This document shows positions 24,342 to 38,286 of a stretch of DNA of 64,000 bases, in pieces. The translations under genes were made by a program, and so were the position numbers. The notes beneath the pieces were generated by a model that had not been told where the DNA came from, did no database searches, and worked only from the letters and a program-made list of their open reading frames with translations. Each line of letters starts with the position of its first letter. Position 1 is the first letter of the stretch. This DNA is from an uncultured Gemmatimonadales bacterium (lineage in GTDB: Bacteria; Gemmatimonadota; Gemmatimonadetes; Gemmatimonadales; GWC2-71-9): the NCBI GenBank assembly GCA_963798915.1, contig CAWCVB010000014.1:64001-128000 (forward strand), given 5' to 3'.

Positions 24342-25346
24342 TCAGAGCGTTTCGAGAAATGCAATCAGCGCTTCCCGCTCAGCCTCGGTGAGGTGCAGCG
24401 GCGCAATGCCAAGCCGCTGTGCGGCCGGTGAGTTGCTGAACCGCTGGCTGTTGTAGAAGTCGACCACCGCCCGCAGAGTGGCCAGGCTGTTGTCATGGAA
24501 GAAGGGTGGACTCTTGGCCACACCGCGCAGCTGGGGTGTGTTGAATGCGGCGCCCCCCTGCGCGCAATCCGGCAAGGAGGGCTCGATCCGGCAGCGGCCC
24601 GGATCGTCAGCCGGTTCGTCCGGCCGCCGTGCCACGATGCCGTGGAACTGGTTGTCGGTCAAGAGCGGCGGCACATGGCAGCTGGTGCATGATGCTTTCC
24701 CGAAAAACAACTTGCGTCCCTCGCGTGCCCTGGCTGACAGGAGATCGAGGCCCACGCCCCCCGTTGCTGGCTCGGACATCGCCTCTTCGAACGCAACGAT
24801 GGCGTCCAACTCCTCCGGAGTGGGTACCCGCTCGCCGGGCCGGTCCGCCGCGCCGTCCAGCAGGTGCAACAGCGCCGCCTCGGCCGCCTGCTCCTGGAGC
24901 GTGGCCGCCCGCCCGTCGGAGGTAAACGGGGCGGTGCGGCGAACATTGCGGATGGTGGGAATACCGCGGAAGACCGTCATCTGCGGGCTGAACAGGGAGG
25001 CGCCGCCCAGTGGATAGCGGATCATGCCGCGCGCGGCCATCTGGGGATCGACGTCCATGGCCCCCGCAAAGAAGGGGTCGTCCGGCGAAAGCCGGGCGAT
25101 GTCCGCTGGCGTGAGGACGAGCGTCGGGGCGGGATGGCAGGTGCCGCAGGTGCGGCCATTGCCGCCGAAGGTCTCGTTGAAGAAGAGCTGGCGACCGCGC
25201 TCGACGAGAGCGGGGTGACCGCTCGCCGCCGAGAACGTTGCCGCGGATACGTCGGTCGGAGCAGGGCCGTCGCACGCGAATGAGCACACCGCGGCCATCA
25301 CGACTGCCAACCGTACGCCCTGCTCGCGACCGCACAACCTGAACAT
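24342..25346 (-). CDS. Di-heme cytochrome c, CcP/MauG superfamily (probable lipoprotein)
   Basis: Two CxxCH (CGTCH, CTSCH); DGRAATLQEQ, TDNQFH, FNTPQLR; lipobox-like SFAC. Confidence 0.85.
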   Translation of the reverse strand: MFRLCGREQGVRLAVVMAAVCSFACDGPAPTDVSAATFSAASGHPALVERGRQLFFNETFGGNGRTCGTCHPAPTLVLTPADIARLSPDDPFFAGAMDVDPQMAARGMIRYPLGGASLFSPQMTVFRGIPTIRNVRRTAPFTSDGRAATLQEQAAEAALLHLLDGAADRPGERVPTPEELDAIVAFEEAMSEPATGGVGLDLLSARAREGRKLFFGKASCTSCHVPPLLTDNQFHGIVARRPDEPADDPGRCRIEPSLPDCAQGGAAFNTPQLRGVAKSPPFFHDNSLATLRAVVDFYNSQRFSNSPAAQRLGIAPLHLTEAEREALIAFLETL

Positions 25347-25350
25347 GGGG

Positions 25351-26010
25351 CTACTCCGCGCGTCCGGGAGCGCCCGGCGCCGAGAACATTGAGAGGGCCG
25401 CATTGGCGCACCCGACCATCGGCAGGTTGCAGAAGGTGGCGAAGGTGCCCGTCTGCAGCGCCAGGTTGGCCGGATCGGTCTCGGCCGGGCCATGGTTCCG
25501 GACCACCACATGGACTTCCGCCCTGAATGGATTGTCCACGCCCGAGGCGTCACCAACCTGGAGGGACTTTCCTTCGATGTCATGACGGAGCAGGTGCGTC
25601 TGATGATAGACGGTGCTGCCGGTGGCCACGAAGCCACCGCCATTCACCAGGCTGCCCTGCGCCTCGCGAACCGCAAGGTCGGAGGGATCGCAGGCGTCAA
25701 CGCATCCCTGAGGATTGTCGAAGATGCCCCACCAGATGCTGTACGCATAGCCCGGGGTCAGGCCGTCCACCGCGAGATCCGCCCAGAGTCCTTCAGCTGT
25801 CCGCGTCAGGGTCACCGTTCCTGAGATGCCTGAGCCGCCCACCGCGCTGAGGGGCAGTTCGGTCTCAATCACCGGCGCGGCAGCGCTGGCGAGCGACACC
25901 GGCCCGGCAAGAGCATTGGCTCCGCTGGGCGCCAGGGAGTCGCTACCAGTACAACCTGCGAGTTGGGTCATCGCCGCCAACAGGGCAAGCGGCAAGAGTT
26001 TGCTGCCCAT
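25351..26010 (-). CDS. Hypothetical lipoprotein
   Basis: MGSKLLPLALLAAMTQLAG-C lipobox; AAGGAG SD; two Cys pairs. Confidence 0.8.
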   Translation of the reverse strand: MGSKLLPLALLAAMTQLAGCTGSDSLAPSGANALAGPVSLASAAAPVIETELPLSAVGGSGISGTVTLTRTAEGLWADLAVDGLTPGYAYSIWWGIFDNPQGCVDACDPSDLAVREAQGSLVNGGGFVATGSTVYHQTHLLRHDIEGKSLQVGDASGVDNPFRAEVHVVVRNHGPAETDPANLALQTGTFATFCNLPMVGCANAALSMFSAPGAPGRAE

Positions 26011-26172
26011 CTTTGCACTCTCCTTGGAAAGGACTTGGAACTGCGTTAGCCGTCGTTGTCCCCTGTTAACGAGCAATGGCCGGTGGCGAGGACAACGGCG
26101 ATGATGGGTGAAATGCGCATGGAGCAGCTCCGGCCTGGGAAGTGGGGCATCGTCGTCCCCCTGCATTCCATT

Positions 26173-26199
26173 ACACCGAACCCGTCAAAGCGGGGCCAC
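26173..26199 (-). promoter_or_regulatory. Putative ECF promoter 1 (GTGGCCCC-N13-CGGTGT)
   Basis: One of three copies with identical boxes and spacing. Confidence 0.75.
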
Positions 26200-26244
26200 C
26201 CCGAAGCCCGGCGAGCTTCCATGCCTGCATCGGCGAGCTGCCGT

Positions 26245-27708
26245 TCAGCTCCCAGGCCGCCAAGCCGGGCTCGTGCCGTTGGCGATGATCCGCCCGCGCT
26301 GGCTTCCGTCGGTGGTGACCCACTCGATCGCATTGGCGGACGCGAACGCGATGATCTGTCCGTCCGGCGACCAAGTCGGATGCGCGTACCCGCTCGTCGT
26401 CGCCAGCCGCATCAGGCCCGAACCGTCCGCGCTCATCACCGCGAGTGCACCGGAGTCGCAGTAGCTCCAGGTTAAGGGGCAGGTCACGAGGGCGATCCGC
26501 CGGCCGTCCGGCGACCAGGCCGGCTGCAATTCGTCGAACGTCGGCTGCGGATCGTGGCTTCGGAGAACCGTGGCCTGGGTCCCGTCCGGAGACACCAGCC
26601 AGATGTCGAGCCAGAAGTCGACCAGGATCCAGTCGCTGCTGAAGGCGATGCGAGTGCCGTCGGGCGACCACGCCGGATGCAGGACTGATACGGTGGTGGT
26701 CAGGACGGTGATCGGGGCAGCGCCGTCGTCGTCGGCGCTCACCTTGCAGACGGCGCCCGCGTCGTGTGCCCCGCAGGAGAACGCCACCCACCGGTCGTCG
26801 GGCGACCACGTGGGACTTCTCCCTGCGCTCACCCGGCGAACCGGATTCGCCCCATCCGCGGTCATGACGTAGATCCCCCCTGCCTCACCGCCGCGCGAGA
26901 ACGCAATCCGGCTGCCGTCGCGGGACCACGCCGGCTCGCTATCCGCGGGACCGGCGGACAACTGGACCAGGCCGGTCCCGTCGGCGTTGGCCCGGTAGAT
27001 CTTCCCGTCGCGGCTGAAGGCAATCTCCCCCGCTTGGGGCGGCGGGATGTACTGTGTGCCCGGTTCCTGGATGTCTACCTGCTCCGTGACCGTCGCGGTG
27101 GCCCCGTGGGTGTCGGTGACGGTGAGTGTCACGGTGAATCGGCCGCCCGGCGCATCGTACGTATGGTACGGGCTCGGCGTGGTGCTGATGTGGCCGTCGC
27201 CGAAGTTCCAGGCCCGCGATACAACCGAATCCCCGGCATCTGGATCCGTGCTCTGATCCGTGAACAAGCACGCCAGGACAGTGCAGCTGACCGAAAAGGC
27301 CGCGGCCGGGGGGAGATCGGCCGGGGGGAGATCGGCCGGGGGGAGGCTGTCGGCGCTCACCGCCACCTGCCGGGAAAACGTCACTGCCGCGCCATCGTCG
27401 TCGGTTACGGCTACGGTCACCTTGAAATCCCCGCCCGGCGCGGCGTAGCTGTGTGTTGGGCTCGCGTCGGTGCTGGTTCTGCCGTCGCCGAAGTCCCAGG
27501 CATAGGTGGCGATGGTGCCGTCTTCGTCGGTGCTGACGTTCTCGAAAGCGCACTGGAGCTGCTCGCAGTGCGCCGTGAACGCGGCGACCGGCGGCGCGTT
27601 CGACTGTTCGGTGCCGGAGACCGGCGGCGCGTTCGACGGTTCGGTGCCGCCGCAGGCGGCGGTGGTCGCGACGGCCGTCATCATGGCGAAGGTGCGAATG
27701 CGGTTCAT
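26245..27708 (-). CDS. Lipoprotein with two PKD domains and PD40 (TolB-like) beta-propeller
   Basis: Lipobox TAAC; WDFGDG and WNFGDG; repeated PAWSPDG. Confidence 0.88.
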   Translation of the reverse strand: MNRIRTFAMMTAVATTAACGGTEPSNAPPVSGTEQSNAPPVAAFTAHCEQLQCAFENVSTDEDGTIATYAWDFGDGRTSTDASPTHSYAAPGGDFKVTVAVTDDDGAAVTFSRQVAVSADSLPPADLPPADLPPAAAFSVSCTVLACLFTDQSTDPDAGDSVVSRAWNFGDGHISTTPSPYHTYDAPGGRFTVTLTVTDTHGATATVTEQVDIQEPGTQYIPPPQAGEIAFSRDGKIYRANADGTGLVQLSAGPADSEPAWSRDGSRIAFSRGGEAGGIYVMTADGANPVRRVSAGRSPTWSPDDRWVAFSCGAHDAGAVCKVSADDDGAAPITVLTTTVSVLHPAWSPDGTRIAFSSDWILVDFWLDIWLVSPDGTQATVLRSHDPQPTFDELQPAWSPDGRRIALVTCPLTWSYCDSGALAVMSADGSGLMRLATTSGYAHPTWSPDGQIIAFASANAIEWVTTDGSQRGRIIANGTSPAWRPGS

Positions 27709-27747
27709 GGGTCGAGTCTCCTGATAGTTGCCCGTGCGCGCGGGCCT

Positions 27748-29277
27748 TCAGCGTCGCCAGCTCGGCGATTGCGCGTTGTTGATGAGGGTGACCTGCCGGC
27801 TCCCGTCGAGTGACACGTACTTGACCGACCGCTGGAAGCAGCCATCGCCCGGGGACTCGCAGCCGAAGAACGAGAAGGCGATGCCGCGCCCATCCGGGGA
27901 CCAGGCCAGCGATCCCACATCCTCGCCGATGGTGATGGGACCGGCCGAGGCGAGGTCCTTCAGGAAGGCGCCGTCTGCAGCCATGACCGCGACCCGCACT
28001 TCCGTGTCACCCCGCGCGATGTTTCCGTGGACGAATGCGATCATGCTGCCGTCGGGCGACCAAGCTGGCTGGAAGGCAACCATGCCATTGGTCAGCCGAG
28101 TTGGACCGGCGCCGTCGGCGTTTACCGTGTAGATGTCCTTGAATCCACCACCGAGCCAGCTGACGAATGCGAGCTTGCGACCATCTGGCGACCAGGACGG
28201 TTGCTCACCGGTCGCGAGGCCCATCGTCGCCCCGTACTGCGGGATGATGAACTCGACGTAGCGGTTTCCGTCCGCCCAGCTTGTGTAGGCGATCGCCGAG
28301 CCGTCGGGAGACCACGCCGGCGAGAGGTTCGTCGGTCCCTGCGTGAGCCACGACACGTTCGCCCCGTCGGCGGTCATGACCCCGATCCTCGCGGCCTCGA
28401 CCTCGCCTACGACTGCATCGCTGGAAAAGGCAATCCGGCTGCCATCGGGTGACCACGCCGGCTGACTCTCAAGGCCCGGGTAGCTCAACCGGTTGAATCC
28501 GCTGCCATCCGCGTTGACGACGGCGATGTCGAGGTAGGGGTCAGCCCATGAGATGAACGCGATCTTCCCCAGGAGATCGCCCGGCGGTGCCGCGGCGAAC
28601 GCCCGGAATACCGCCAGGGCCCCGCCCGACACCGCAGCCACTTGCTGGACACCGGCCTCGGCGCCGAGCGTCCACGTCTCGCCGTGGCCCTGCCGGTGAA
28701 TCGGTGAGGCCGGATCGCCATCGACGGTGCCGCCGCCGGCGATCACCGTGAACACGACCGGAACGCCCGCGACGGGATTGCCGAAGGCGTCGACCGCGGC
28801 GGCGACCAGCGGTTGCTCGAGGACCTGGCTGACACCAGCCAGCTGATTGTTGCCGCTCGAGGGCGTGATCTGCGCGACCGGCCCCGGGGCGGCCACCGCG
28901 GTGAAGACCACGTCGGTGTGGCCGCCTGCGCCCGCCGCCAGCGTCTGCGTGCCCGCTATGGGTCCCAGCGTCCAGTTCGCGAGGGTCGCCGATCCATCTT
29001 CGCCGGTCGTCACTGTACCGCCGTCCACGGTGCCGCCGCCGGTGGCCACCTTGAACGTGATGACGACACTGGCCAGCGGCCGGTCGCGCTCATCCGTGGC
29101 GCGCACCGATGGCGCCGGCTGAACCTCGGCGCCAACCGTGCCTGTGAGCGAGGTGGCCGTGACGGCCGTGACGCGGATCGCCGCCTCAGGCTGAGGCTCG
29201 GTGCTGCCATCACAGCCCTCGAGGCAGGCGGCGAGGACGGTAGCGAGGGCGACGGAAACGAGGCGTGACGGACGCAT
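27748..29277 (-). CDS. Lipoprotein with Ig-like domains and PD40 beta-propeller
   Basis: VLAAC/LEGC lipobox candidates; WTLG repeats, DAFGNPV; WSPDG repeats. Confidence 0.85.
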   Translation of the reverse strand: MRPSRLVSVALATVLAACLEGCDGSTEPQPEAAIRVTAVTATSLTGTVGAEVQPAPSVRATDERDRPLASVVITFKVATGGGTVDGGTVTTGEDGSATLANWTLGPIAGTQTLAAGAGGHTDVVFTAVAAPGPVAQITPSSGNNQLAGVSQVLEQPLVAAAVDAFGNPVAGVPVVFTVIAGGGTVDGDPASPIHRQGHGETWTLGAEAGVQQVAAVSGGALAVFRAFAAAPPGDLLGKIAFISWADPYLDIAVVNADGSGFNRLSYPGLESQPAWSPDGSRIAFSSDAVVGEVEAARIGVMTADGANVSWLTQGPTNLSPAWSPDGSAIAYTSWADGNRYVEFIIPQYGATMGLATGEQPSWSPDGRKLAFVSWLGGGFKDIYTVNADGAGPTRLTNGMVAFQPAWSPDGSMIAFVHGNIARGDTEVRVAVMAADGAFLKDLASAGPITIGEDVGSLAWSPDGRGIAFSFFGCESPGDGCFQRSVKYVSLDGSRQVTLINNAQSPSWRR

Positions 29278-29397
29278 GGGCACCGCTCCGGGCTGGAAGG
29301 CATGCGCGGCGCTGATTAGTCTGGAGGCCGCGATCGCGATAGTGCGGGGCTGGACGGTGTGCCTCTTCGGCAGCATCATCGTCCCCTGCATCAGATC

Positions 29398-29424
29398 ACA
29401 CCGAACCCGCCAAAGAGGGGCCAC
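29398..29424 (-). promoter_or_regulatory. Putative ECF promoter 2 (GTGGCCCC-N13-CGGTGT)
   Basis: Repeat copy, 17 nt before the divergent ECF start. Confidence 0.75.
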
Positions 29425-29441
29425 TGAGGAAGGGAGGGACC

Positions 29442-30035
29442 GTGGACGATCGTGTCTCCACCCTGGTCGACGCCGTCGCGGCCGGCGACCGCGGGGCCCT
29501 GGATGCCCTGTTTCCGCTGGTCTACGAGGAGCTGAGCCGGTTGGCGCACCAGCAGCGCCGGCGGTGGGACGGTGACTTCACCCTGACCACCACCGCGCTG
29601 GTCCACGAGGCGTACCTGAAGCTGGCCGGCCAGCGGCAGCTGCCCGCGGGGAGCCGAGCCCACTTTCTCGCCATCGCCGCCCGGGCGATGCGACACATCC
29701 TGTGCAACTACGCGCGTGACCGCCGGCGCCAGAAGCGCGGTGGCGGCCGGCCGCACCTGCAGCTCGAAGAAGCGGATGCCGCGGATCGGGCGTCGATCGA
29801 GCTGTCAGACGATCAGGCGGACCGTCTGGCCGGGCTCGACGAGGTGCTGCGCCGTTTCGAGGGCATCGCTCCGCGGCAGTGCCAGGTGGTCGAGTGCCGC
29901 TTCTTCGGTGGGATGAGCGTCGAGGAAACCGCCGCCGCCCTCGACGTATCTCCCCGCAGCGTCAAGCGGGACTGGGCTTTCGCGCGAGCCTGGCTGCTCC
30001 GGGAATTGCAGCGTCCCGTGACCGGAGAAGATTGA
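29442..30035 (+). CDS. ECF sigma factor, kinase-associated type (TIGR02999/ECF43-like)
   Basis: LVYEELSRLA, TLTTTALVHEAYLKL, AARAMRHIL, QKRGGG, VECRFFGG, VKRDWAFARAWL. Confidence 0.92.
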   Translation: MDDRVSTLVDAVAAGDRGALDALFPLVYEELSRLAHQQRRRWDGDFTLTTTALVHEAYLKLAGQRQLPAGSRAHFLAIAARAMRHILCNYARDRRRQKRGGGRPHLQLEEADAADRASIELSDDQADRLAGLDEVLRRFEGIAPRQCQVVECRFFGGMSVEETAAALDVSPRSVKRDWAFARAWLLRELQRPVTGED

Positions 30036-30056
30036 GGGGACTTGCGTGCTGGCCCG

Positions 30057-31512
30057 TCAGGGGCGCCACGCCGTCGCGAAGACATTCTGAATCAGGGGAA
30101 CGGGCTGGCTGAGCCTGCCGTCTGCCGGGACCCAGAAGCTGTTGTTTCCCCACCCGAAGGCGATTCTGCTGCCATCGGATGACCACGCCGGTGCGTACGT
30201 ACCACCGACCGTCGTCAGCTGCACCAGGTTCGCCCCGGCCGCACTCACGGCGAATATGTCACACGTGTCTTCGTCGTGGCACTTCGTGAACGCGATCCGC
30301 TGACCGTCCGGCGACCAGCTCGGATGCCCCATGAACCGGTCGCTGTTCAGCGTCCTGACCCCCGACCCGTCCGCAGTCATCACCTTGAGGGAATCGAGGC
30401 TTGGACAGCCCGCGACGATCGCGATCTTCGTCCCGTCCGGCGACCACGCAGGTTCGACTTGTCCGCACGCCTCCGCCAGCAGGACCGGAGGCATCGCATC
30501 CCCGGCATTCAACACGTACACCCCACCGGGTCCCGCGACGGCGAGCCGCTCACCATCGGGCGACCAGGACGGCGCGTGGAATCCGGTGGCGCGGAGCGCG
30601 GCATTGGAGCCGTCGGCATTCATGAGCAAGAGATCGATGTCCTGGTCGTCCCAGTTGTAAATTGTCGCTGCGATCCGCTGGCCGTCCGGGGACCATGCCG
30701 CATCCACTGCGCCCTCAATCAACGGGGTCGTCTCGCCATCGACCAGACTGTTGAGCACGCCTGCACGGTCCACGAAGAGGAGATCCCGCCCGCGGCACGG
30801 GTCTCCGCACGCGAACGCCTGGAAGAGGGTGTCCTTCCCGGCGACCGAAGCCTTCACCACCTGGCCGCCCACGCCGCCGAGGGTCCAGACTCCCGAGCTC
30901 GCGACGCCCAGGGAATCCGTCCTCGAACTGTCGCCGAGGATCGCACCATTCCCCACGACGACCGCATACGTCACCGCCTCCCCGGGGACGGGATTTCGAT
31001 ATTTATCGGTCGCCTTCAGCTTCAACGGTGTCGGGAGCGGCGCCCCCGACCGCAGCGGTCTGATTGTCCCCCGCCACGATCGCGACAGTCACTGGTCGTC
31101 CCGGCTGCGCAACGGCGGTGAAGACCACATCGGCAACGCCATCAGCGCGGGCCGTGAGAGTCTGGGGCCCGGGCACGGTGCCGAGTGTCCATGTTCCTGG
31201 TGATGCGACGCCCGCCGTGTCGGTGCGCTGCGACGTGATTTCGATCGAACCGCCGCCCGATACGATGAACCGCACCTCCCGGCCAGGTGCCGGCGCACCG
31301 TCGCGGGTCGTGAGCCGCACCGTCGGGATGGAGTCGGATTTGGCTCCCACGATGCCGCTGAGACTCGTCGCGGAGTGCGCCTCCAGGCTGAGCCCATTTT
31401 CCACCGGCTCCTCAGGCTGCTGGGGCTCGACCGAGTCGCAGCTGACGAGCACCAGCATGATGCCGCAAACCTGCGCCACCGCCCGCCACGTCAGCCGGTC
31501 GTTTCTGCGCAT
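30057..31512 (-). pseudogene. Ig-like + PD40 beta-propeller lipoprotein, split by frameshift at C5 run 31043-31047
   Basis: Lipobox LVSC; removing one base joins the two ORFs (VGAPLPTPLKLKATD); paralogous to 27748..29277. Confidence 0.8.
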
Positions 31513-31611
31513 ACCCCCTCCAAGTGAGTTTCATGAGCGCCCGCCACTGGCACCCTCTTGAGGATTGTCGGCCGCCGCTGTAGCGTCGGACCAGTCCGTT
31601 CACCCCATAAC

Positions 31612-31638
31612 ACACCGAAACCCCTCAACCGGGGCCAC
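31612..31638 (-). promoter_or_regulatory. Putative ECF promoter 3 (GTGGCCCC-N13-CGGTGT)
   Basis: Repeat copy, 2 nt before the divergent kinase ATG. Confidence 0.75.
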
Positions 31639-31640
31639 CG

Positions 31641-34199
31641 ATGGAGCCGACACGGGCGGAGCGAGTAGCGGCCCTGTTCGACCGGGCCCTTGACGTGCCG
31701 CGGCGGGAGCGCACGGCGTTCCTGGAGAGCGTGTGTGGCGACGACGACGAGCTGTGGCAGGAGCTGATCTCGCTGCTGGAGGCGCACGAGTCGGCCGACG
31801 AGTTCTTCGACCGTCTGGCGGAGGATGTGATTGCGCCCGCCACCGCGGCCGTTGTCGCACACGGTCGCTCCGACGTCCCGACGGAGCTTGCGTCGGCCCT
31901 CGAGGGTCGCTATCGCATCGAGCGGGAGCTTGGCGGTGGGTCCTTGAGCCGGGTGTTCCTGGCCCAGGAGCTTGGACTCGAGCGGAAAGTCGTGATCAAG
32001 GTGCTGCCGCCCGAGCTGGCCGCGACGGTGAGCGGCGAACGATTTCGCCGCGAGATCCAGCTGGCCGCCCAGCTGCAGCACCCGCACATCGTGCCACTGC
32101 TCAGCGCCGACGCGGGTGGCCGTCTGCTGTACTACGTCATGCCGTTCGTCGCGGGGGAGTCACTGCGCGAGCGGCTTCGGCGCGACGGCGCGCTCTCGAT
32201 CGCCGATGCGTCAGGCATCTGGCGGGACCTGCTCGATGCGCTGGCGCACGCCCACGCCCGGGGCGTGGTCCATCGCGACGTCAAACCGGGCAACATCCTG
32301 CTGAGCGGCCGCAATGCCCTGATCGCTGATTTCGGCATCGCCCGCGCGATCGAGGCTGCCGGAGAGGCGGACGTCACCGTTCCAGGCCTCGCGATCGGCA
32401 CGCCGGCCTACATGGCCCCCGAGCAGATTGACGGCAGCTCCGCGGTCGATCACCGCGTGGACCTCTACGCCTCGGCCCTGGTCATGTACGAGATGGTCGA
32501 GGGGCGACTGCCTTTCACCGGGGCCTCGCCGCGGGACGTGGCGCTGGCCCGTCTGACCCAGCCACCCCCTCCCATAACCCGGGCGGATTGCCCGCCCGAG
32601 CTCGCGGCCATCGTGCTCCACTGCCTCGCCCGGGATCCCGAAGGCCGTCCCGCGAGCGCCGACGCGGTGCTGGCCGCGCTCGATCAGACGTCCGGGCTGG
32701 CGGGTGCCGTCCCAGGCCGAAGGTCGTGGCGGCGCCTGACCACTGCGGGGCTCGCGGCGGTGTTGCTGGCGGCAACCGCGCTGGGAGCGCGATACCTGGG
32801 GTGGGATCGTAACGATGCCGCTGTCGACAGCAGGCCCGCCCCGTCCCTCGCCGTTCTACCTCTGGCCAATCTCAGCCCCGAAGCCGGCGACGCCGCCCTG
32901 GCCGACGGCATGACCGAGGAGCTGATTGCCGTCCTCAGCCAGGGCCGGACCCTGCGCGTTGTCTCGAGCACGTCGGTGCGCGCCCTCCAGAACCGGCAGC
33001 TCGAGGTGCGCCAGATCGCCGAAAGCCTGCGGGTATCACACGTGCTCGAGGGTGGGCTGCAGAAGGTCGGTTCGAAGCTGCGCATGCAGGTGCGCCTGGT
33101 GGATGCGCGGGACGGTTCCACCCGCTGGTCGGAAACGTACGACCGGGAGATGGGCGACATCTTTGCGATCGAGGATGACATCGCCCGCGCCGTCGCGGGT
33201 GAGCTCGATCTCCGGCTCGGCGGCGGCAGCAAGCCGCGGCCGTCTCATCCTGTCTCCACCTCCAGCGTCGTCGCCTACGAGTGGTATCTCCGCGGACGGG
33301 AGAATGCGCTGGTCCGCACGCACGAGGGCCTGCTCGAGGGCATCGGGTATCTCCAGCGCGCCATCGCCCTCGATTCCGGCTTCGCTGCCGCGCACGCCGC
33401 GCTGGTGTGGCTCTATATCAACCGGGCCGGGAGCATCCCCGGAGACCATCGGACCTGGTACCGTCGCGCGGAGGCCGAGGCACTCAAGGCCATCGCCCTC
33501 GACGACTCGCTGGCCGATGGCTACGCCGCCCTCGGGTGGGCCCGCATCTCCCTGGGACAGCCGGCAGCCGAGGCGGCACTCAACCGCGCAGTCAGCATCG
33601 ATCCTGCGGCGCACCGGGCGTTCGAGGGACTGGCGCGCTTCTACATGCTCATGCGCCGTCCGGCCGAGCAGCTGGCCGCGGCCCGGCGTGGACTGGCGCT
33701 CGACCCCTTCTCGACCGCGGCCATTCGCGAGATGGCGCTCGCGCTCAGCACCAACGGCCGCTGTGACGAAGCACTGGCGCTGCTCCGGCCGCTCAAGGAC
33801 CTGCACCCGCCCGCCGCCGTCGCCGGCGTCATCCGCGGGCAATGCTACGCCACGAAGCAGATGTGGCCGGAGGCGATCGCCGAGCTGCGCTGGGCCATGC
33901 GGACAGCCGATGCCCGGACCGCCCCCGGCCTCCTGGGCTACGTGCTCGCGCGGAGCGGCCGCCGTACTGAGGCGCAGGAGATGCTGTCGGACATGCTGGC
34001 AGGGCGTACGCAAAGTCACGGCGCCTTCGGCATCGCGCTCGTCTACGCCGGACTCCGGGACTACGACCGGGCGTTCGTCTGGCTCAGGAAGGCGGCGGCG
34101 GAAGGGTCGATCCGGGTCTACATCATGGATCCGCTCTTCCAGGATCTGCAGCGTGATCCGCGTTTCGAGGGAGTGGTAATGGCGGGCGGCGCTTCCTGA
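31641..34199 (+). CDS. Hanks-type Ser/Thr protein kinase with TM helix, TolB-N-like domain and TPRs
   Basis: GGGSLSRV, VIKV, HRDVKPGN, DFG, GTPAYMAPE; TM; SLAVLPLANLS; TPR-like helices. Confidence 0.93.
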   Translation: MEPTRAERVAALFDRALDVPRRERTAFLESVCGDDDELWQELISLLEAHESADEFFDRLAEDVIAPATAAVVAHGRSDVPTELASALEGRYRIERELGGGSLSRVFLAQELGLERKVVIKVLPPELAATVSGERFRREIQLAAQLQHPHIVPLLSADAGGRLLYYVMPFVAGESLRERLRRDGALSIADASGIWRDLLDALAHAHARGVVHRDVKPGNILLSGRNALIADFGIARAIEAAGEADVTVPGLAIGTPAYMAPEQIDGSSAVDHRVDLYASALVMYEMVEGRLPFTGASPRDVALARLTQPPPPITRADCPPELAAIVLHCLARDPEGRPASADAVLAALDQTSGLAGAVPGRRSWRRLTTAGLAAVLLAATALGARYLGWDRNDAAVDSRPAPSLAVLPLANLSPEAGDAALADGMTEELIAVLSQGRTLRVVSSTSVRALQNRQLEVRQIAESLRVSHVLEGGLQKVGSKLRMQVRLVDARDGSTRWSETYDREMGDIFAIEDDIARAVAGELDLRLGGGSKPRPSHPVSTSSVVAYEWYLRGRENALVRTHEGLLEGIGYLQRAIALDSGFAAAHAALVWLYINRAGSIPGDHRTWYRRAEAEALKAIALDDSLADGYAALGWARISLGQPAAEAALNRAVSIDPAAHRAFEGLARFYMLMRRPAEQLAAARRGLALDPFSTAAIREMALALSTNGRCDEALALLRPLKDLHPPAAVAGVIRGQCYATKQMWPEAIAELRWAMRTADARTAPGLLGYVLARSGRRTEAQEMLSDMLAGRTQSHGAFGIALVYAGLRDYDRAFVWLRKAAAEGSIRVYIMDPLFQDLQRDPRFEGVVMAGGAS

Positions 34200-34211: not shown

Positions 34212-37200
34212 TCAGAACCGGAACCGCGCCGCCACCTGCAGCTGGAACGCCGACTCGGCCGTGAGCGTCTCCCACGGCGTGAAGCCGGGATCGAAGCGGA
34301 AGACCGGTTGCGCATTGCCCGCGGCATCGGTGCTCTCGCCGACCTGCTCCAGGATGCGAGGCCGCGCCAGGCGATAGCGGCCCCATCCGTCGCTCAGCAG
34401 GTTGAGCAGGTTGAAGGCATCCAGCTCCAGCTCGAGCACCTGCCGGCCGACCGGAATGCCCTGCCTGACGGAGGCGATGGTCGTGTGGGTCCACGGCTCG
34501 CGGCAGCTGTTGCGCGCCAGGATCCGTCCGCGCTGGCGGCGCAGGCAGGGCGTGGCGTCGATGAACTGGTCAAATGCAGCGGCCTGCTGGGCGGCGCTGA
34601 CCGTTTCGGGTGTGCCCGAGGCGTCCCGCGTGAAGGGCTGGAATCGAATTTCGTTGGTGTCGAGCGTGGCCTGCGGCACGTAGATCGGATCGTTGGCATT
34701 GGAGCCGTCCGCGTTCAGGTCGCCCCGCCGGCCAGCGCCGGTCGCGAGGTAGGTGAAGGGGCTCCCCGACTCTCCCACGTAGTAGAAGGCGAACTGGGTA
34801 GGCCAGCGCGTTCGCTGCACGGTCCAGGTGAGCGCCGCGACGATGCGATGCGGCAGATCATTGAGCGAGATGCCGAGGGTCGAATCGTCGTGCCGCCCGG
34901 AGACGGCTCGTGCGTCGGCCCACATCGCGATTCCCGTTGAATTCACCCGGCTGGGCGACTGCACGTCACGAGTCCGCGACCAGGTGTACGACAGACTGGC
35001 GCCGAGCCCATCGGCAAGGTCACGCTCGATCCTGCCCGCCAGCTGATACGAGTAGTTCCTCGACGTATTCCGGAGCTCGATGACCTCCGAGTAGTTCGAG
35101 CGCAGCGCGGGCGTCGCGATGCCGAGCGGATCGATCGTACCGTAGAGCACACGGCCGAAGCGATCCACCGACTGGGGGCCCTGGAGATTGAGGTTCACCC
35201 ACATGAAATCAGAGAGGTACCGGTTCACCAGCAGGTCCGCGCTCGCCAGCAGGCTGCCGGGAAGCTCCCGCTCGTATCCGAGCGACGTGCGGAGCGTCCG
35301 CGCCATCCGGAGGCCGGGATCGAGCAGGTCGACGTCGCCGAAGGGGCGCGCTGACAGCGGGTCACCCGTGGCGCACTGCTCGGGCGCCGCCTCGTAATTC
35401 GGCACGAAGGCCGGCGGCAGGCCCGCGTCGGTCGGGCGAAGGCCGCAGGACAGGACGCCGATTCCTTCGCCGTGATTCGAAAGGGCGGGCACGTACCAGG
35501 CGAGCGGGGGCCGCCCCGTGAAGATCCCGATGCCGCCGCGGACACGCTCGCGCCGCGCCGCCGAACCGTCCCAGGTGAATCCGAGCCGCGGGGAGAGCTC
35601 CATCCGCCGGCGCGGCATCTGATCGGTACGCCGGCCGAAGATGGAGTCAATCGAGGGGTTATATGGTGCGTGCCCCTCGACCGCGAGCAGCTCGGCGCGA
35701 AGGCCGGTCGTGAGCGCGAGCCGCTCGCCCAGACGCCACTCGTCGCCCAGGTAGGCGGTGTACTGGCCGCCTCGAAGCGGCCGGCTCTCGCTGCCGAAGT
35801 CCTTGCGCAGCTCGAATCGGACGGGCGTACCGGCCTCGAGCGCATCCAGACTGGCGAAGGTCCATGTGCCGTAGCCATTGAGGACGCCGCCGCGCAGGAC
35901 CCGAAACCGCTCCATCTGCACGCCGGCCACGAGCGCATGGTTCCCCGCCCACGGAAGACTGAGCTCGTCCCTCACGGTGAAGGAGCGTCCCCTGCCGAAG
36001 GGCCCCTGCGCCTGCTGCGCGCTGCCGGCGACGGCCACCACGTCGCCTCCCTCAGTTCCGGGGAGCGCGACCCGCACGAGCGGCTGCCGAACGTCCGGCA
36101 CCTGATTGGTGTGATCCCAGCTCAGTGAGGCGAGCAGCTCGTTGTGACCGCCCCGCTCCCGCCGGAGGTCGGTATGCACCTGTACTGCGGCAACATCGAC
36201 GCCGAGGTCAGTCGTGAACCGGTAGCTCGACAAAGCGAACGTATCCGTTGCGGCGCGCGAAAACTTCTGGCTGCGAGAGTGGGCGGAGGTGACGAACGCC
36301 GTGACTCGGCTGTTCCACGTCGGGAGCCAGGCATCCACGCGGCCAAAGAGATTGACGAGCGGCGTTCCGTTCTCCAGGTACGCGGCCGACCCCGGGGTCA
36401 ATCCGTACCGGTCCTGCAGGATGCTCTGCAGTCTCGCCACATCGGCATCACTCACCGGGACGGCTGGCCGCAGTCCCGCTGGCTGGCCCACATAAGATCC
36501 GGCGGCCGGCTCCGAGAGACGCTGGAACTCGGACGCAACGAAGAGTTGCACGCGATCCCTCACGATGGGGCCGCCGAGCGAAAAGCCCGCCTGGAGCCGG
36601 TCGTAGGGACTCGGGGCTGCGTCGATGCCGTCGCGTGTCAGCTGGTCGTTGCGCCAGTAGGCGAAGGCGGAACCGCGCAGGTCATTGGTGCCTGACTGGG
36701 TGACCGTATTGACCAGGGCGCCCGCGAAGCTTCCGTAGCGCACGTCGTACGGCGCCACGAGCACCTGATACTCCTTCACCGCATCGAGCGGAATCGACTT
36801 CCCGACGTTCGACGCCGCGGAGACACCCCCGTTCACGAACCGCTCACTGGCGCCGTTGATGAGAAAGCTGTTGAACCGGAAATTGGCCCCGCCGCCCGAC
36901 ACACCGGTCCGCCCGCCGCCGACCTTGGTAGACACGTAGGGCGCGAGGGCGACGAAGTCCTGGAAGTTCCGGTTCAGGGTGGGCAGTCGCCGCACCAGGG
37001 CTTCAGGGATCGTGGTGCCCGGACCGCCTCCGAGCGTCGATGCCGTGTCCCGCACCTCGATTGCCGGGAGCTCGACGACAGCCGGCTCGAGCACGAAGGC
37101 GATGCTGAGCGGCTCGCCCAGTGTCAGGTGCAGGGGGGCGCTCTGCTCGGGCCGAAATCCGATCTGCCGCACCTCGACGACGTACGGACCACCGGGCTCG

Positions 37201-37418
37201 AGCCCCTGGACCAGGAAGCGGCCGCCCACGACCTGGGCATGGACGACGAATCCGGTGGCAGTATTGATTACACGGACGCTTGCGCCGTCGAGGTCCTGAC
37301 CAGCGGGGCCCTGTACACTGCCGCGTATCCCGCCGGTCGTCAGTCCCTGTGCCGACGCGGATGATACGAGAGGAATGAACGAGAGCAGGAACAGCGCGGC
37401 CATCGCCGAGAATCTCAT
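34212..37418 (-). CDS. TonB-dependent receptor (Oar-like, carboxypeptidase-regulatory-like N-domain)
   Basis: Signal peptide; LPTLNRNF, IPLDAVKEYQV, YDVRYG, SGTN, SPRLGF; C-terminal RFRF. Confidence 0.9.
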   Translation of the reverse strand: MRFSAMAALFLLSFIPLVSSASAQGLTTGGIRGSVQGPAGQDLDGASVRVINTATGFVVHAQVVGGRFLVQGLEPGGPYVVEVRQIGFRPEQSAPLHLTLGEPLSIAFVLEPAVVELPAIEVRDTASTLGGGPGTTIPEALVRRLPTLNRNFQDFVALAPYVSTKVGGGRTGVSGGGANFRFNSFLINGASERFVNGGVSAASNVGKSIPLDAVKEYQVLVAPYDVRYGSFAGALVNTVTQSGTNDLRGSAFAYWRNDQLTRDGIDAAPSPYDRLQAGFSLGGPIVRDRVQLFVASEFQRLSEPAAGSYVGQPAGLRPAVPVSDADVARLQSILQDRYGLTPGSAAYLENGTPLVNLFGRVDAWLPTWNSRVTAFVTSAHSRSQKFSRAATDTFALSSYRFTTDLGVDVAAVQVHTDLRRERGGHNELLASLSWDHTNQVPDVRQPLVRVALPGTEGGDVVAVAGSAQQAQGPFGRGRSFTVRDELSLPWAGNHALVAGVQMERFRVLRGGVLNGYGTWTFASLDALEAGTPVRFELRKDFGSESRPLRGGQYTAYLGDEWRLGERLALTTGLRAELLAVEGHAPYNPSIDSIFGRRTDQMPRRRMELSPRLGFTWDGSAARRERVRGGIGIFTGRPPLAWYVPALSNHGEGIGVLSCGLRPTDAGLPPAFVPNYEAAPEQCATGDPLSARPFGDVDLLDPGLRMARTLRTSLGYERELPGSLLASADLLVNRYLSDFMWVNLNLQGPQSVDRFGRVLYGTIDPLGIATPALRSNYSEVIELRNTSRNYSYQLAGRIERDLADGLGASLSYTWSRTRDVQSPSRVNSTGIAMWADARAVSGRHDDSTLGISLNDLPHRIVAALTWTVQRTRWPTQFAFYYVGESGSPFTYLATGAGRRGDLNADGSNANDPIYVPQATLDTNEIRFQPFTRDASGTPETVSAAQQAAAFDQFIDATPCLRRQRGRILARNSCREPWTHTTIASVRQGIPVGRQVLELELDAFNLLNLLSDGWGRYRLARPRILEQVGESTDAAGNAQPVFRFDPGFTPWETLTAESAFQLQVAARFRF

Positions 37419-37460
37419 CTGACCATAGCCCATCGACGCTCCGCGCATCCACCTGATGGA

Positions 37461-37494
37461 GGCGCCGCAGCGGCGGACCGACCGCTGCGGCGCC
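37461..37494. other. 13-bp GC stem-loop in the TonB receptor leader
   Basis: GGCGCCGCAGCGG-cggaccga-CCGCTGCGGCGCC. Confidence 0.6.
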
Positions 37495-38286
37495 AGTTCG
37501 TGCGGGACATCCGAAGCGGAGCCACGCTGCTCACCCCGCTCTTCCAAGCCTGCGACATCAGCCGGAAGATCGGCGACAAATGGCGCATCCAGTCTGAAGC
37601 GCGCCAGTATCATCTCACTCGGGGCCCATTCAGGCTGCTGCGCTGCCATGGGGTCGCACCTCCGCCGCTCCAGTCAGTCCGTCGCCCGGCAACATGCCTT
37701 CCGCGACCCGCGTCGCCTCACGGTGAATCACATGAAAGAGCTGCGGAACACTAAACCAGGACACCATGGTGTCGCCCGCCGTCCATGTATCAAGTGCGCG
37801 ATGGGCGTAGGTTGCGGGCCGACGTTCTGGATGCGGCGGCCATGTCACCGACAACGTAGGGGCGGAGTTGGTCGCGCGCCAGAACGGCCGGCCGGCCCAG
37901 CAGCTTCAGCCCCGGGTCAGGTGGCCGCTCATGTTGCGCTCGCGCCGGCGCTCGGGTCGCACCGAGCACACCCTTTCGCACGAAGCGGCGGTCGTCGACC
38001 TGGCGCAATAGTCTGGCGCAGTTCAACGCGCCCCGGTCCGACGCACGGCGGACAGGATGCCGCGCTTCGCCCTGGCAAGGGCCGCCCGCGCCGCATGATC
38101 AGCCGCCGCATTGTCCAGCGGCTCCCCGGTGATGAGCAGGCTCCCCCGGCGCAACGCGCGAGCTCAAGGGCAAGACCCGGTATTTCTGCAGTCAGGGGTG
38201 TGCCATTGCGTTCGAGGAGCATCCGCATCAGCATGGAGCTGAGCCATGAGCGCATCACTGATCACCCTGTCTCAGGAGCAGCAAGC

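Follow-up and report, generated by a model that had tools for sequence, protein, structure and literature searches.

Sigma factors of the extracytoplasmic function (ECF) type that are activated by a kinase, namely the ECF43 group and its expanded relatives, are widespread, and to our knowledge few of their promoters are known. The usual promoter prediction seeks an autoregulatory site upstream of the sigma gene and fails for sigma factors that do not regulate themselves. Here we describe a two-part motif, GTGGCCCC-N13-CGGTGT, found beside an ECF43-like sigma factor gene of an uncultured Gemmatimonadota lineage, and we propose that it is probably the target promoter of this sigma factor, not an autoregulatory one. 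The whole stretch of DNA that was analysed, called the window below, is the 64-kb segment C14:64001-128000 of assembly G000, which consists of 17 contigs and 3,306,633 bases with 66% G+C and is 84.8% complete. Coordinates given without a locus or contig name are those of the window. In the literature excerpts used throughout this text, ECF43 loci have the kinase gene directly after the ECF gene, and the kinase has one transmembrane helix and external TPR repeats (PMC7826278). The ECF43 members carry QTTA or STTA at the place of the acidic DAED, and the threonine is the phosphorylation site of EcfP and one of those of EcfK (PMC8999054, PMC13147305). As for promoters, 'GTC in -35, CAG in -10' is predicted for ECF43, and CGGTGTA and GGTGT are the predicted -10 elements of ECF204 and ECF268 (PMC7826278); the spacers of ECF promoters are 14-17 base pairs (bp) long, and AAC is typical of their -35 element (PMC5758882).

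The closest described systems are the ECF43 pairs EcfP/PknT of Vibrio parahaemolyticus and EcfK/PknS of Xanthomonas citri, and the locus in the window resembles them in several respects. Its sigma factor has 197 amino acids (29442..30035, plus strand) and scores 165.2 bits with PF07638 and 194.2 bits with TIGR02999, for which the cut-off is 126.15. As in the excerpted descriptions of EcfP and EcfK, the family is PF07638 and xTTA stands for DAED (PMC8999054, PMC13147305): the sigma2.2 region of the window ECF is TLTTTALVHEAYL, with TTTA in place of the usual DAED. A Thr-rich sigma2.2 stretch, mostly xTTA, is retained in nearly all of 93 ECF relatives, where the comparison was made with the QTTA/STTA motifs quoted in the same two papers and not by a formal alignment to EcfP or EcfK. 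The Ser/Thr protein kinase (31641..34199, plus strand; 852 amino acids) comprises a kinase domain (residues 91-342), a transmembrane-like segment (366-384) with a borderline hydropathy of 1.49, and C-terminal TPR repeats. Further likenesses to the excerpted accounts of both pairs are that no anti-sigma factor is nearby and that a kinase with a transmembrane-like segment and TPR repeats lies directly downstream of the ECF gene in relatives, here in L029, L030, L031, L033, L034 and L035. When 11 open reading frames (ORFs) of the region were scanned against Pfam, no anti-sigma domain was found among them, and the ECF was the sole DNA-binding protein. A sequence search of solved structures with the window ECF returned nothing at E <= 0.01. 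The locus differs from the two pairs, as excerpted, in that it belongs to the Gemmatimonadota, with relatives in Acidobacteriota and Rhodothermales, that its putative targets are PD40/Ig lipoproteins, and that ECF and kinase are separated in this genus by an inserted lipoprotein gene, which carries a motif copy of its own. The kinase gene of G000 is found 1.6 kb downstream of the ECF, beyond this inserted minus-strand gene.

It was found that the exact pattern matches three times in the window, each time on the minus strand, and in none of 100 dinucleotide-preserving shuffles. Copy A is GTGGCCCC-gctttgacgggtt-CGGTGT at 26173..26199 (37.5 bits with a weight matrix), copy B is GTGGCCCC-tctttggcgggtt-CGGTGT at 29398..29424 (40.3 bits) and copy C is GTGGCCCC-ggttgaggggttt-CGGTGT at 31612..31638 (39.7 bits); the two boxes, as in copy A, are proposed to be the -35 and -10 elements of an ECF-type promoter. 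An initial annotation of this DNA had listed three minus-strand copies with invariant boxes and invariant 13-nucleotide (nt) spacing, and our scan with the exact pattern reproduces its coordinates and sequences. The whole G000 assembly contains the same three matches only, and allowing spacers of 11-15 nt adds none. When the consensus was extended to 20 specified positions, the genome had three sites at zero mismatches, none at one to three and two at four, and shuffled genomes gave 2-7 sites at four mismatches and 0-2 at three. In the weight-matrix scan of the genome the runner-up to the three window sites reaches 13.2 bits, which leaves a gap of 24 bits, and the peaks of three shuffled genomes are at 15.0-16.9 bits. 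Because there are only three genomic sites and they stand far above the shuffle level, the motif is real, is no dispersed repeat and is restricted to a 5.5-kb stretch. The genome-wide scan that the initial annotation had proposed thus limits the motif to three sites at one locus, all of them oriented toward genes, and the scattering regardless of gene orientation that it had named as the mark of a generic repeat is not what the genome shows.

The confinement of the three copies to one 5.5-kb stretch and the empty shuffles also bear on a chance match, which together with a dispersed repeat, a sigma-54 promoter (TGGC...TTG) and a terminator makes up a set of explanations that we regard as scarcely credible. 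The consensus of sigma-54 promoters has GG at -24 and GC at -12 at a fixed spacing. The G000 copies do have TGGC and, 6-7 nt later, TTG, but this TTG is found in the G000 copies only and is missing in the spacers of most relatives, in which the CGGTGT box is kept; the sigma-54 reading was rejected because the TTG is not conserved. A terminator would suit the place of copy A, 45 nt past a stop codon. This candidate was rejected as well: the CCCC...GGGG pairing of copy C is not common to copies A and B or to the relatives, and a terminator-like site was found at none of the copies.

The locus is present in 6 of the 9 other species genomes of the genus, where it runs from the outer-membrane protein gene through kinase, motif C, Big_1/PD40 gene, ECF and motif B to the PD40 genes. 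The unpublished genome G023 figures in tallies alone, and nothing claimed here depends on it. Orthologous sites of copy B exist in G001, G005, G006, G007, G008 and G009, and those of copy C in six genus relatives. Within the genus, the kinase genes differ from each other at 34-45% of their four-fold degenerate sites. For the B sites (6 genomes) the mean pairwise difference is 0.04 in box 1, 0.30 in the spacer, 0.00 in box 2 and 0.40 in the next 12 nt, and the corresponding values for the C sites (7 genomes) are 0.12, 0.27, 0.10 and 0.33. This selective conservation is directly observed, and by this comparison only the boxes and their distance are held, as would be expected of a two-part protein-binding site and not of a repeat or a leader. 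The spacer is 13 nt in all 27 distinct sites that were collected, and one further variant has 12; T residues follow just past the -35 box, at spacer positions 3-4. The information-content profile of the 27 sites is circular for the boxes, as the sites were picked by the pattern, and so the pairwise differences and a 6-mer enrichment given below were relied on instead. We also scanned 151 genomes of the family with the exact pattern and T at the last spacer position. G000 and all three sampled genus members matched; the other 147 genomes yielded single matches in two, and a reversed control pattern likewise gave two matches. A side observation concerns G007 (L025, G007:C40, 8150-8671), where the lipoprotein gene between ECF and kinase has shrunk to about 500 bp; box 1 of its copy C carries two changes (CTGGACCC), and the spacer and box 2 are unaltered.

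All three window copies are intergenic. Copy A has a stop at 26245 on one side and a start at 26010 on the other, lying 45 nt past the stop of a PKD/PD40 gene and 162 nt before the start of a lipoprotein gene. Copy B sits between a minus-strand start at 29277, 120 nt off, and the plus-strand ECF start at 29442, 17 nt off, and copy C between a minus-strand start at 31512, 99 nt off, and the plus-strand ATG of the kinase at 31641, only 2 nt off. At 99-162 nt each copy is followed by a start codon that has both a ribosome-binding site and a lipobox. The claim of the initial annotation that the copies are intergenic and face lipoprotein units holds up, since ORF positions and the domain scan agree with the gene content that it had named. 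In relatives, each of the 18 sites that were examined further is followed at 56-175 nt by a same-strand start codon, and most of these starts come with a ribosome-binding site and either a signal peptide or a lipobox. Among 17 downstream proteins of relatives that were scanned, 11 have PD40 (with Big_1, Big_5 or PKD), 2 are secreted DUF7453 proteins, 3 are lipoproteins without a family and 1 is a hydantoinase. For example, L029 has three tandem PD40 lipoprotein genes with one copy each, two of these copies lying between same-strand genes, and L030 has one copy between an outer-membrane protein gene and a Big_1/PD40 gene. Copy A, the two L029 copies and the L030 copy are thus placed between tandem same-strand genes, with no adjoining divergent gene, and because some copies lack a divergent neighbour the element is taken to act toward the lipoprotein genes.

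On the opposite strand, that of the ECF and kinase genes, 17 of 26 upstream regions have the pattern TTGAG.-N17-TAnnnT upstream of the motif, the spacer always being 17 nt. It occurs at the same offset in all seven kinase upstream regions of the genus and also in L033, which has no motif, and it is unmatched upstream of the ECF in G000 and G008. It is probably a housekeeping promoter of the ECF and kinase genes, judging by its sequence and position. The candidate for the kinase in the window is TTGAGG-N17-TAGCGT at 31558..31586 on the plus strand, which faces copy C; it was picked out with our own pattern, and a scan of 25900-31800 for consensus sigma-70 promoters lists none, TTGAGG-N17-TAGCGT included. 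Because the pattern lies upstream of the motif, the motif is probably transcribed in the ECF/kinase direction too. Could the motif then act on the plus strand, as an RNA hairpin or a translation element in the 5' leader of the ECF and kinase mRNAs? Besides the plus-strand pattern in those 17 regions, copy B precedes the ECF start by only 17 nt and copy C the kinase start by only 2 nt, and G007 keeps the spacer and box 2 of copy C though the minus-strand gene is mostly deleted. This is nevertheless very unlikely in our judgement. Copy A and three copies of relatives have no adjoining plus-strand gene, the distance from the motif to the ECF start ranges from 17 to about 140 nt, and 12 folds gave z-scores from +1.76 to -2.52 with differing pairings and no common structure. 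There was also no Rfam match, the best one being BcKCsr2 with E = 0.55, which was taken as chance.

We then return to the reading as a promoter of the neighbouring sigma factor, for which the distribution of the motif among ECF relatives is informative. A total of 80 loci encoding ECF relatives was scanned with the relaxed pattern [AG]TGGCCC[CGT]-N12-13-[CT][GC]GTGT (RTGGCCCB / YSGTGT). The ECF reaches 58% identity or more to that of the window in 20 of these loci, and 10 of them have matches; the 60 loci below 58% have none. All 15 matches are on the strand opposite to the ECF gene, and a reversed control pattern matched in none of the 80 loci. Two of the ten matching loci are known genus contigs (L048 = G007, L053 = G001); the other eight are L029, L030, L034, L035 and L062 in Gemmatimonadota, L039 and L041 in Acidobacteriota, and L038 in Rhodothermales. 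Individual matches may be due to chance, such as that at 9923-9948 of L030, which has a spacer of 12 and lies inside a gene, and that of L062, which lies ahead of a cytoplasmic hydantoinase. Six relaxed-pattern loci in G174, G176 and G177 have no ECF, kinase or PD40 homologue in their vicinity and were treated as chance.

A tree was built from 93 ECF rows, 15 of which have a motif no farther than 6.5 kb away. These 15 all fall into one subtree of 28 rows, which has a support of 92 in the Shimodaira-Hasegawa-like approximate likelihood ratio test (SH-aLRT). The 65 rows outside this subtree, seven paralogues from G000 included, have no motif at all, and the motif label requires 6 changes on the tree compared with a mean of 14.1 for shuffled labels. 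The upstream regions of the seven PF07638 paralogues of G000 likewise have no comparable motif layout. We also counted 6-mers without reference to the motif, on the strand opposite to the ECF and within 260 nt upstream, in 21 clade and 48 non-clade loci. The two most enriched ones upstream of clade ECFs are TGGCCC (11/21 vs 3/48) and CGGTGT (10/21 vs 3/48), where the p-values are uncorrected for multiple tests. The co-distribution with one ECF clade is a direct observation, and the occurrence in other phyla suggests that the module has spread laterally or is of old origin, so far as the sequences can tell. It was also observed that L038, L039 and L041 have the -10 variants TGGTGT and TCGTGT and that their sites face a lipoprotein without a family and DUF7453 secreted proteins. 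The scan of related genomes that the initial annotation had suggested finds the motif in company with one ECF43-like clade across genera and phyla. Its principal claim, that the motif is the recognition sequence of the local ECF, gains support from the uniqueness in the genome, the conservation of the boxes only, the orientation and this co-occurrence.

Several observations weigh against the neighbouring ECF as the protein that reads the motif. In G001 (L023, G001:C61, about 930-1455) the ECF is a pseudogene with an N-terminal deletion and a frameshift, and in contig C129 of G006 (L021, about 490-690) larger deletions have removed almost all of it; both motif copies are intact in each of them. 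The two share the N-terminal ECF deletion, with the kinase and the PD40 gene intact in both, and no other ECF orthologue was found in G001, which is 87% complete. Conversely, L033 of genome G173 encodes an ECF 72% identical to that of the window together with a kinase, has the motif nowhere in the genome and has no adjacent PD40 gene, and 13 of the 28 clade rows are without a motif by the pattern used. The co-inheritance of the whole locus would make any local cis-element track the ECF clade. As for the sequence of the motif, AAC is absent from the -35 box, which reads (G/A)TGGCCC(C), and the motif differs from the ECF43 prediction 'GTC in -35, CAG in -10' in the excerpt of PMC7826278.

The intact motifs beside broken ECF genes, the clade ECF of G173 without any motif and the missing AAC are also the points in favour of a real cis-regulatory site that is read by some other factor, be it another sigma factor or a transcription factor whose gene lies elsewhere, and that tracks the clade by co-inheritance of the locus. 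We consider this unlikely. There is no further DNA-binding protein conserved at the locus, and an asymmetric two-part site with a fixed spacing that is always oriented toward a gene is promoter-like rather than an operator. In addition, the motif is absent near 65 other ECFs, including the seven paralogues in the same genome, and the ECF loss of G001 and G006 falls within a recently exchanged segment. The segment in question, L021:1-509 and L023:439-947, contains a different lipoprotein gene along with motif B and what remains of the ECF, and it is 96.7% identical over 509 nt, while 44% of the four-fold sites differ between the kinase genes of G001 and G006. The comparison suggests that the segment was recently exchanged between G001 and G006 as a promoter-plus-cargo cassette. 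Because the segment is so similar when compared with the kinase genes, the exchange is taken to be recent, and the ECF loss need not be old. An intact ECF orthologue, nearly identical to that of G009, is present on contig C277 of G006; it may belong to a co-binned strain.

When compared with described promoters, the layout TGGCCC-N14-CGGTGT has a spacer that fits the ECF range of 14-17 bp. The excerpted predictions for ECF204 (GGAACC / CGGTGTA) and ECF268 (GGGAAC / GGTGT) have the same two-part layout with a -10 element of the type CGGTGT(A/G), but their -35 elements have AAC where the present motif has TGGCCC(C), and they are accompanied by an anti-sigma factor and thought to be autoregulated, whereas neither holds here (PMC7826278). 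The promoters of sigma-W/M/X/V of Bacillus subtilis (tgaAAC ... CGTA/CGTC), as excerpted from PMC5758882, share with the motif the two short boxes, the spacer of 14-17 bp, T residues past the -35 element and a close adherence to the consensus. The present motif differs from them in having no AAC and, as predicted, a strictly local regulon of three sites, with the sigma gene not among its targets. Neither GGCCC nor TGGCC appears in any ECF group description within the examined part of the supplement of PMC7826278. The initial annotation had not recognised the motif as a described ECF promoter, and a full-text literature search agrees with it: nothing was found on the motif or on Gemmatimonadota ECF-kinase promoters, in a comparison that does not extend to the EcfP regulon motif (Iyer et al. 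2020).

On the promoter reading, TGGCCC(C) would serve as -35 element and (C)GGTGT as -10 element, with 14-15 bp between them. We infer which protein reads the motif, the start site and the phosphorylation step as follows. The membrane kinase would sense something in the envelope via its TPR region outside the cell and would phosphorylate a threonine of the TTTA sequence in sigma region 2.2, upon which the sigma factor would bind core RNA polymerase. The holoenzyme would then initiate a few bases past CGGTGT on the minus strand, giving leaders of about 90-155 nt, and would turn on a lipoprotein and a di-haem peroxidase from copy A, Big_1/PD40 and PKD/PD40 lipoproteins from copy B, and a Big_1/PD40 lipoprotein from copy C. 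Positive autoregulation would be missing. The copy on the ECF strand that marks autoregulated ECF promoters is not found here: none of the 15 matches in the 80 loci is on that strand, nor is any copy in the window. Because its strand has no motif copy, the sigma factor is not expected to drive its own gene.

The genes that these copies face in the window are all on the minus strand. Downstream of copy A, the first is a 219-residue lipoprotein (25351..26010) whose signal peptide ends in LAGC and which has no Pfam or NCBIfam match. The second (24342..25643) encodes a di-haem cytochrome c peroxidase or MauG-like protein with PF03150 and PF00034, the MauG and MbnH models scoring below the cut-off; its true start is probably internal to the listed ORF, because the ORF as listed overlaps the lipoprotein gene. 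Copy B faces a Big_1 and PD40 beta-propeller lipoprotein of 509 amino acids (27748..29277, from the domain scan), and 40 nt after it begins the gene of a PKD and PD40 lipoprotein of 487 amino acids (26245..27708). Copy C faces a Big_1 and PD40 lipoprotein gene (30057..31512) that is frameshifted in G000 into 31003-31512 and 30057-31025: residues 1-161 are in one frame and 157-506 in another, with the junction at 31003-31045, and G006 has a single ORF of 506 amino acids. The G000 gene is either a pseudogene or the product of an assembly error. Farther off, convergent with the kinase, lies the gene of a CarboxypepD_reg and OMP beta-barrel protein of 1145 amino acids (34212..37649, minus strand). 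This gene is kept in all loci of the genus and in L029, L030, L031 and L033, and in G000 it has no motif copy of its own.

Copy A itself was found only in G000. It is similar to copy B for about 32 nt past box 2 and not upstream of box 1, and so its sequence suggests that the promoter module was duplicated recently and placed before other cargo. The leaders past copies A and B (26140-26166 and 29365-29391, minus strand) share the block ATGCAGGGG(G)ACGA.GATGC, which recurs behind the B sites in several relatives within the genus.

The geometry of the facing promoters permits one further proposal. The kinase-side transcript is predicted to start near 31593 on the plus strand and the copy C transcript near 31605 on the minus strand, with an overlap of about 10-12 nt. 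Since the start sites overlap, the facing promoters should exclude each other. The region could then work as a self-limiting switch, in which polymerase with the activated sigma factor sits on the leader, 2-17 nt from the start codons, and blocks transcription of ECF and kinase while it activates the lipoprotein genes, the copy C transcript running antisense into the convergent ECF gene. This extension of the promoter reading is doubtful, and we offer it tentatively. It is speculation that the kinase would thereby come under negative feedback, as would the ECF at copy B in most relatives. If the switch were true, it would be wired by promoter geometry alone, in a sigma family without an anti-sigma factor and without autoregulation.

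If the motif is the promoter that we take it to be, it provides a testable sigma-promoter pair for an uncultured Gemmatimonadota lineage, with the unusual -35 box TGGCCC. The regulon would be small and clean, with three promoters for PD40/Ig lipoproteins and a di-haem peroxidase. The promoter module also seems to be copied before new cargo, as with copy A here and the different lipoprotein in G001 and G006, and one use of the pair could be as an expression part that is orthogonal and gated by the kinase. It would also tie a defined set of surface proteins to a kinase that senses the envelope.

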